From: a virus
Lineage: Duplodnaviria; Heunggongvirae; Uroviricota; Caudoviricetes
Length of the DNA stretch: 36,921 nucleotides
Reading direction: 5' to 3' (one strand)
IMG/VR virus record: IMGVR_UViG_2531839667_000014
Location: 1 to 36,921 of that record
The notes beneath the pieces are model-generated. The model was given only the letters and a program-made list of their open reading frames with translations. It was not told where the DNA came from and made no database searches. The position numbers and the translations under genes were made by a program. Below are positions 20,518 to 21,498 of the stretch, piece by piece; within the stretch, counting starts at the first letter, position 1, and each line of letters opens with the position of its first letter.

Positions 20518-20999
20518 CAGTCTCTCGCTTTTAAAAGCTCTGCCAGTGGATCAACATCATCCGGTCCGGCGGTATTTACTTTAGCCCGGCTTGCCGGTGA
20601 CATACCAAACTCTGCAAGCATCGCCCGGATCCGCTTCCAGGCATCCGCCTTCATCGCCGCAGCCGGATGTGCCTTGATCATCACATCGCCATTCTGCGTT
20701 TCCGTGCGGTAGGTATAACCCTCAACATCGAGTGTTTCGCAGTGATGCCGGTATTCGGTGTAGGCTTCCACCAGTAACTCGAGTGCACGCGCATCAAGCT
20801 GAGAAATGATCCCTTCCGCATTCAATTCTTCCGCCATTCGCCTGAACCAGTACTTCCCCTGTGCCCCTAAATGTTGCGGAATTTTAGGGAGACCTTTTTC
20901 ATCCTTTTTAGCGGTTTTTTTGGGGTCTTTAACGGGGCGTTTTGAGGGGTTGCCTCGTATCAAATGCAGGCGTGGCGGGGGTTTCGGGGGTCCTGGCAT
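20517..20999 (-). CDS. terminase small subunit (P27 family)
   Basis: 160 aa, basic proline-rich N-terminus; stop overlaps the large terminase start. Confidence 0.8.
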   Translation of the reverse strand: MPGPPKPPPRLHLIRGNPSKRPVKDPKKTAKKDEKGLPKIPQHLGAQGKYWFRRMAEELNAEGIISQLDARALELLVEAYTEYRHHCETLDVEGYTYRTETQNGDVMIKAHPAAAMKADAWKRIRAMLAEFGMSPASRAKVNTAGPDDVDPLAELLKARD

Positions 21000-21147
21000 A
21001 ATCGGTTTTACCTATCAATCGTTTAATCACATTTCCAAAAAAAAGTTTTCGAACCTGCGGCGATGTGAGGAAGGGTCAGGCGGCGGTACTGAGCAGCCAG
21101 GGCTGCAGAGATTTGACCCGCCCCTCCCCTACAGATGGGAACTGTTA

Positions 21148-21498
21148 TCAATTGATGCGTTCGCGCGCTGTTTTTGCTTTATGGCAGGGCCAGCACAGAC
21201 TCTGCAGGTTACTGTCTGCATCCGTGCCACCATGAGCTTTCGGAATGATGTGGTCCACAGTTCTGGCTTCAACGGCTCTCCCATTGCGCAGGCAGTTCTG
21301 ACACAGATGATTATCACGCTTCAGTATGCGCGCACGTATGGCATCCCATTTCGAGCCATAGCCACGCTGGTGGCGACTCAGTCCGCGTTGATGCTGTACC
21401 CATCCTTCGCCACGATGTTTATCGCAGTAACCAGAACTGTCTGTGGTTGTACCTGCACATCCACGCTTACGGCAGGCACGTGGAATTAGTGATGGCAT
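21148..21498 (-). CDS. HNH endonuclease (terminase-associated)
   Basis: 116 aa with zinc-binding cysteines and HNH signature ...VDHIIPKAHGGTDADSNLQSLCWPCH... Confidence 0.85.
   Translation of the reverse strand: MPSLIPRACRKRGCAGTTTDSSGYCDKHRGEGWVQHQRGLSRHQRGYGSKWDAIRARILKRDNHLCQNCLRNGRAVEARTVDHIIPKAHGGTDADSNLQSLCWPCHKAKTARERIN

Follow-up and report, generated by a model that had tools for sequence, protein, structure and literature searches.

Phage HK97 carries its packaging and head genes in the order HNH - cos - terS - terL - portal - protease - capsid. Its virion DNA ends in 10-nt 3' overhangs (PMC9410871, Fig. 1 legend; PMC11331095), its genome record is numbered so that cleavage falls between -1 and +1, and the binding site of its small terminase (TerS) has been placed at +15 to +29 with a T/A tract (PMC11331095). 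The HNH protein of HK97, gp74, stimulates terminase cleavage at cos (PMC9410871, PMC11331095), and a cos-linked HNH protein is essential for the completion of packaging in Skunavirus sk1 (PMC12967558). An N-terminal zinc ribbon is present in cos-linked HNH nicking enzymes and is missing from gp74 (Xu and Gupta, PMC3592412).

A second set of related systems is formed by phiP27, an Stx2e phage, and the SfV/SfI/SfIV/ST64B group, in which a 10-nt cos has been annotated or mapped beside an L34-type HNH gene and a P27 small terminase gene; for phiP27 and SfV, statements on cos are taken here from GenBank features and later citing papers. When the ends of SfI virion DNA were sequenced, the reads fell 10 nt (TGCCCGCCCC) short of the prophage sequence, and this 10-nt gap was placed at the end of the SfI record (PMC3636060). 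A gap rather than an overlap would be the run-off sequencing outcome for 3' overhangs. The cos of lambda (cosQ-cosN-cosB) follows a three-part logic of an upstream element, a nick site and a downstream TerS site.

Gene organisation of the window

The window, i.e. the whole stretch of 36,921 nucleotides that was analysed, is a lambdoid E. coli prophage whose late region is of the HK97/phiP27 type (Table 1). According to the ORF coordinates, the HNH, terS, terL and head genes and the cos region between them all lie on the minus strand, and terL overlaps the terS stop codon. A sequence-only reading of the window had placed a 116-aa HNH gene directly upstream of terS, with a 148-bp spacer between the two as the likely cos site. 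The sizes and coordinates of both the gene and the spacer proved exact, and "upstream" is right in the direction of transcription, although that reading had not stated the strand. As for the spacer itself, column-for-column alignment showed its homology to the cos of HK97, of SfI/SfV and of phiP27, in agreement with the proposal. We conclude that the spacer is very probably the cos of a lambdoid E. coli prophage with HK97/phiP27-type packaging and head genes, working by the mechanism proposed below. The observed basis of this assignment consists of the gene identities, the synteny, the homology between the spacer and cos regions that have been mapped or annotated, the fixed spacing of its elements and the co-variation of its right half with TerS; the exact nick positions, the overhang polarity, the binding of TerS to the right block, the role of the G-rich box and the dependence on the HNH protein are what we infer.

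Table 1. Coordinates of the packaging, head and lysis genes, the cos elements and other features of the window.
Feature	Position	Strand	Remarks
Major capsid protein, HK97-fold	15457-16683	-	PF05065, E=2e-80
S78 prohead protease	16697-17377	-	PF04586, E=4e-33
Portal, HK97-type	17325-18566	-	PF04860, E=4e-107
Head module, HK97-type, whole	15457..18566	-	portal, protease and capsid
Large terminase (terL), HK97-type ATPase and nuclease domains	18760..20517	-	585 aa; PF03354 and PF20441
Small terminase (terS), P27 family	20517..20999	-	160 aa; Pfam Terminase_4 (PF05119), E=5e-26
Non-coding spacer holding the cos region	21000..21147	-	148 bp
IHF core match TATCAATCGTTTA	21013..21025	+	consensus WATCAANNNNTTR
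Right cos element	21037..21075	-	CCCTTCCTCAC, then invariant ATCGCCGCAGGTTCGAAAAC (21064..21045), then T8 (21044..21037)
Predicted cohesive end CGCCGCCTGA (5'->3')	21076..21085	minus (packaging strand)	from alignment to HK97, SfI and phiP27
24-nt spacer, fixed length, variable sequence	21086..21109	-	ends in conserved (G/T)AC
Left cos element	21110..21129	-	G-rich box GGGGAGGGGCGGG (21129..21117) and TCAAATC (21116..21110)
HNH endonuclease gene	21148..21498	-	116 aa; Pfam HNH PF01844, E=1.9e-16
Rz	21541-22020	-	lysis genes
Lysozyme	22005-22502	-	lysis genes
P21-type holin	22502-22717	-	lysis genes, before the HNH gene
tRNA-Gly(tcc) and tRNA-Thr(tgt)	23010-23163	-	between Q and the holin gene
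Q antiterminator	23457-24278		precedes the lysis genes
RusA	24275-24655		beside the DUF968/HNHc_6 protein
DUF968/HNHc_6 protein	24656-25711	-	351 aa; second HNH-like nuclease of the prophage; nin region, beside RusA and Q
823-aa protein, C-terminal Rv2179c-like 3'-5' exonuclease domain	33144-35615	+	early region, adjoins the integrase-family ORF
Integrase-family ORF	35902-36921		reaches the right edge of the window

The arrangement is already well known from HK97, phiP27 and SfV/SfI, and the exact sequence is common in E. coli. The stretch from the HNH gene through the spacer to terS was 97.6% identical to that of the Stx phage phi467 (LN997803) and 95-96% identical to those of several induced E. 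coli phages. A 171-bp cos stretch was 100% identical in E. coli NZ_CP090611 and, among 5426 complete E. coli genomes, 863 (16%) carry it, always in the chromosome. While phi467, the closest phage, has the same tRNA-Gly(tcc) and tRNA-Thr(tgt) with stxA/stxB just upstream, the window has no stx-sized ORFs at that place. In the early region, the 823-aa protein with the exonuclease domain is named exodeoxyribonuclease VIII in related phage records.

Packaging proteins

The matches of the HNH and terminase proteins to their families in Pfam and NCBIfam were far above chance level. TerS scored 107.7 bits against TIGR01558 ("P27 family", NCBIfam; cut-off, 45.6) and 91.4 bits against PF05119 (cut-off, 24.7). 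It showed 72% identity with TerS of mEp235 and 22% with that of phiP27 (22-26% across the phiP27/SfV group, whose TerS proteins belong to the same Pfam and TIGRFAM family). It gave no blastp hit to HK97 gp1, which itself matches no Pfam family, and a PDB search by sequence returned no solved homologue. TerL showed 87% identity with mEp235, 38% with phiP27 (36-38% across the phiP27/SfV group) and 29% with HK97, and its only sequence match in the PDB was HK97 TerL (6z6d, E=1.2e-36). No lambda-type terminase family was among the Pfam matches of the two terminase proteins. The window follows the three-part logic of lambda cos with unrelated terminase proteins, predicted 10-nt 3' ends in place of 12-nt 5' ends, and an HNH nuclease in addition.

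The HNH protein carries an N-terminal zinc-ribbon-like motif composed of C9, C14, C25 and H28 (C9-x4-C14 ... C25-x2-H28), followed by the core residues C66xxC69, D82-H83, N97 and C102xxC105-H106. It matched the HNH endonuclease of GVE2 (PDB 5h0m) over the full length with the N-termini aligned (E=6e-15), and the catalytic residues H93/N109/H118 of the GVE2 enzyme align to H83/N97/H106 of the window protein; the HNH catalytic motif (His general base, Asn, metal-binding His and the CxxC pairs) is intact. The window protein thus resembles the zinc-ribbon HNH nicking endonucleases (Xu & Gupta 2013; GVE2 HNHE 5h0m) in its full-length likeness, Cys motif, catalytic H/N/H residues and terminase neighbours. 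In contrast to GVE2, the host of the window phage is Gram-negative and the phage is lambdoid, and the nicking activity of the window protein is putative. The amino acid sequence is 90% identical to phiP27 L34, whereas the identity with HK97 gp74, which is without the N-terminal zinc ribbon, is 37% over the 70 aa of the HNH core.

Judged by these identities, the packaging module is a mosaic of a phiP27-like HNH protein and mEp235-like TerS and TerL. The sequence-only reading had called the arrangement HK97-like. That description holds for TerL, which is homologous to its HK97 counterpart, for the portal, protease and capsid, and for the left half of cos, but not for TerS, which is of the P27 family and unlike gp1, or for the HNH protein, which is of the zinc-ribbon phiP27/GVE2 type.

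We examined the position of the HNH gene in 80 related viral contigs. The gene adjoins cos/terS in 76 of them, with a spacer of 144-149 bp (187 bp in one), and is displaced by an inserted gene in the other four. The inserted gene, also found in PhiR49_2, encodes 171 aa, is reverse-oriented and lies between the HNH stop codon and the G-rich box; its position sets the left boundary of the DNA that cos requires.

The constancy of this linkage bears on an alternative in which the HNH protein is a free-standing selfish homing endonuclease and cos lies in the spacer, but TerS and TerL suffice for its cleavage. The homologue is called "homing endonuclease" in several GenBank records, HNH proteins of this type show non-specific cutting or nicking of DNA in vitro (PMC3592412, PMC12967558), and the recombination junctions around cos, with a phiP27-like HNH gene on one side and mEp235-like terS and terL on the other, form a pattern that is known at the boundaries of homing endonucleases too. 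However, every relative examined has the gene in the same orientation beside cos, with none sporadically without it, and this constant linkage argues against a sporadic homing element. The gene also persists across TerS types and across phages of E. coli, Shigella, Salmonella, Klebsiella and Morganella, and both the stimulation of cos cleavage by gp74 (PMC9410871) and the requirement for the sk1 homologue in packaging (PMC12967558) speak against a purely selfish role. We consider this alternative improbable and favour a cos at which the HNH protein acts together with the terminase.

Two phages, PhiR49_2 and Morganella IME1369_02, had been candidates for cos-bearing phages without an HNH gene and were rejected when tblastn found the gene in both. 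In PhiR49_2 (PV340570), where 17743-18954 takes in both this gene and the inserted one, it is unannotated and its product is 91% identical to that of the window; in IME1369_02 (22089-22439), the homologue is labelled "holin".

Predicted cut site and cohesive ends

Eleven cos regions were aligned, with the ends of phage records joined where necessary. The 10 alignment columns that hold window positions 21085->21076 also hold the closing 10 nt of the HK97 record (CGCCGCCAAA), the SfI gap (TGCCCGCCCC, with which the SfI record closes) and the 10-nt "cos-site" annotated between the HNH and terS genes of phiP27 (CGCCCGCCCC). In all three references the 10 nt follow GAC, and in these columns the window reads GTAC CGCCGCCTGA CCC. 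Since the HK97, SfI and phiP27 references occupy identical columns, the end is predicted at 21085-21076. The virion ends are thus predicted, by homology, to be 10-nt 3' overhangs as in HK97, produced by a minus-strand nick at 21076|21075 and a plus-strand nick at 21085|21086, positions that the sequence-only reading had left unplaced.

Across the predicted site, ACCGCC (21087..21082) was invariant in 63 distinct relatives. The overhang sequence itself is not fixed among close relatives, in which either CGCCGCCTGA or CGCCCGCCAA occurs; therefore, the cut register rests on the alignment to more distant phages. Among the 80 contigs, whose TerS proteins are 96-99% identical, 62 carry CGCCGCCTGA, 16 carry CGCCCGCCAA, and CGCCGCCTTG and CGCCCGCCTA are found once each. 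Contigs with the CGCCCGCCAA allele have a left flank like that of phiP27, GTCCGGGAC, which looks as though recombination joints lay inside the cut site.

Database records were also searched for marks of the ends. No overhang feature is annotated in the HK97 records AF069529 and NC_002167. The mEp235 and phi467 records have no annotated cos and are not linearised at cos; the ends of the mEp235 record, considered as a cos marker, were uninformative, as this record starts at the terS ATG, and the same probably applies to the Fraca record. Within 20950-21200 of the window, the repeats consisted of one weak direct pair and one weak inverted pair, with no dyad at the cut.

Left and right elements of the cos region

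The left cos element, composed of the G-rich box and TCAAATC, was found in all 11 aligned phages, including HK97. TCAAATC ends exactly 24 nt ahead of the predicted overhang in 80 of the 80 viral contigs, which had been retrieved via the TerS protein, and the same distance is kept in HK97, phiP27, SfV and mEp235. Within the window, the G-rich box element has no match other than this one. From its placement, which is like that of cosQ in lambda, the left element is inferred to be a candidate termination or nuclease-docking element. Several indel variants of the G-rich box occur in close relatives; both this box (21117-21129) and the T run (21037-21044) differ in length among near-identical relatives, and the two are homopolymer-like, slippage-prone tracts within cos.

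Comparison with the HK97 cos sequence, which had been suggested as a check on the spacer, gave a divided result. From the G-rich box to the end of the overhang, 34 of 57 positions (60%) are identical in an ungapped alignment, a value reached by 0 of 20000 shuffles, whereas the identity is 28%, the random level, over the 40 nt on the right side of the cut. The features common to both phages are the G-rich box, TCAAATC, the 24-nt spacing and ACCGCCGCC at the cleavage site, so that the left half of cos is shared, with GACCGCCGCC at the cut. The right half is unrelated in sequence, although a T tract follows the cut in both. In the phiP27/SfV group, the left half is near-identical to that of the window, but the overhang is (C/T)GCCCGCCCC versus CGCCGCCTGA, and the right half is T-run-ACCCGCGAAA versus ATCGCCGCAGGTTCGAAAAC-T8. 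With mEp235 (Hendrixvirinae, Nochtlivirus), the window shares the whole cos architecture, the right block included.

ATCGCCGCAGGTTCGAAAAC was invariant in 63 distinct close relatives, and the T run behind it varied between 6 and 9 nt. Three phages with TerS proteins 62-86% identical to that of the window, namely mEp235, a Klebsiella phage and a Morganella phage, have a nearly identical right block; in phages whose TerS is of the SfV, phiP27 or HK97 type, other sequences take its place. In the window, the block is unique, with 0 matches expected. Based on its position and its co-variation with the TerS type, ATCGCCGCAGGTTCGAAAAC-T8 (about +12 to +39) is likely to be the small-terminase binding site, for which it is our candidate. 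The geometry of the HK97 binding site is carried over here by analogy, since TerS of the window shows no detectable similarity to gp1.

The IHF core consensus WATCAANNNNTTR has one match in the 36.9 kb on both strands, with 1.48 expected for the window. This match sits in the cos spacer, flanked by the T8 run and the start of terS, i.e. between the candidate TerS site and terS, a further possible likeness to lambda cos. It is kept in close relatives such as PhiR49_2 and is absent from mEp235, the Klebsiella phage and the Morganella phage. The site at 21013..21025 might conceivably serve as a host-factor bending site.

Proposed mechanism and other possible functions of the spacer

The following course of packaging is proposed. 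After induction, late transcription from a Q-dependent promoter would run on the minus strand through the lysis genes, the HNH gene, cos, terS and terL. The P27-family TerS would bind the right element of concatemeric DNA (about +12 to +39, ATCGCCGCAGGTTCGAAAAC-T8) and set the HK97-type TerL on the cut site. TerL and the HNH protein would then jointly nick the DNA 10 nt apart around ACC|GCCGCCTGA|C, more exactly AC|CGCCGCCTGA|CCC, leaving 10-nt 3' overhangs, and packaging would proceed toward terS, i.e. toward lower window coordinates. At the next cos, the G-rich box and TCAAATC would enter the head last and probably aid the terminal cleavage, like cosQ in lambda.

It could also be supposed that the phage packages by the headful (pac) mode, or that cos lies outside the spacer, e.g. 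inside or upstream of the HNH gene, so that the motifs in the spacer serve another purpose. The distance from the HNH gene to the cut, which is not fixed, would fit such a view: the HK97 cut lies 319 nt past the HNH stop codon (a distance of 309-319 nt) versus about 60 nt in the window (about 62 nt from the stop to the cut). However, the motifs of HK97 are likewise located before terS, at 49-100 nt, and the anchor is, therefore, terS and not the HNH gene. The mapped ends of HK97 and SfI carry the same conserved motifs, TerL has its one solved relative in the cos enzyme of HK97, and neither the G-rich box nor the right block has a further copy in the window. These observations make a cut outside the spacer or headful packaging very improbable, and a cos within the spacer is retained.

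That the spacer mainly controls transcription or translation of the terminase operon, as a promoter, terminator or leader, is the least credible of the alternatives: it precedes terS, holds the terS ribosome-binding site and the T8 run, and is overlapped by short ORFs annotated over cos DNA in two GenBank records (PhiR49_2 XSB43091.1 and a CDS of Klebsiella phage vB_VIPKPNMC05), but a scan of the spacer and of the minus strand across 20400-22800 revealed neither a sigma-70-like promoter nor an intrinsic terminator, no GC hairpin comes before the T8 run, the length changes of the G-rich box and the T run (T6-T9) in close relatives would frameshift a short ORF, and the conservation peak coincides with the mapped phage ends. 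In the window, a 42-aa ORF with a TTG start extends across cos (21023-21151, minus strand); this ORF and its equivalents in PhiR49_2 and vB_VIPKPNMC05, which are entered there as hypothetical proteins, are probably spurious.

For the spacer as cos, the practical value of the prediction is modest. The predicted cut concerns a common type of E. coli prophage (16% of complete genomes) and aids the annotation of genome ends and the interpretation of induced-phage sequencing. It also helps to forecast which satellites or plasmids with the same cos are open to mobilisation.

Distribution of the left and right cos elements and a possible modular cos

The left module (the G-rich box and TCAAATC, 24 nt before ACCGCC) is common to phages with sequence-unrelated TerS and is conserved above any packaging protein. 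Viral contigs were scanned for GGRTCAAATC-N22-ACYGCC to see its distribution. The pattern demands the G-rich box, the spacing and ACYGCC, so that these shared features are built into the instances found, and independent support comes from the 11-phage alignment and the spacing count in the 80 contigs. The scan returned 121 instances, 95 of which had an HNH gene upstream and a small terminase gene downstream. The TerS proteins encoded downstream in these 95 were of the SfV type in 49, the window type in 16, the mEp235 type in 15 and the HK97 type in 14, and one was phiP27-like. About 15 instances had neither an HNH gene nor terS, which is near the chance expectation for a pattern of that size. 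Among the instances of the scan, the sequence on the right side of the overhang varies in step with the TerS type.

Taken as an analogy with lambda, these observations allow the tentative suggestion, which we hold as possible rather than probable, that cos is modular. The left module would provide docking or termination for the HK97-type TerL/HNH pair in the manner of cosQ, the right module would be swapped together with terS, and the joint between the two would lie inside the 10-nt overhang. A joint at that place is consistent with the occurrence of two overhang alleles among phages whose TerS proteins are 97% identical. A left module at fixed spacing across unrelated TerS proteins, with an exchanged right module, may be new. 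No description of the shared left module was found in the literature searched, and the module may be known already from earlier work, i.e. the genome papers of HK97, SfV and phiP27 or Kala et al. 2014. For HK97-type packaging, in which the TerS site alone is biochemically defined, the comparison provides a map of a shared left module and a right module that co-varies with TerS. In one viral contig (L133), two copies of the G-rich box/TCAAATC-N22-ACYGCC motif (3497-3534 and 6368-6405) lie on the same strand, 2.9 kb apart.
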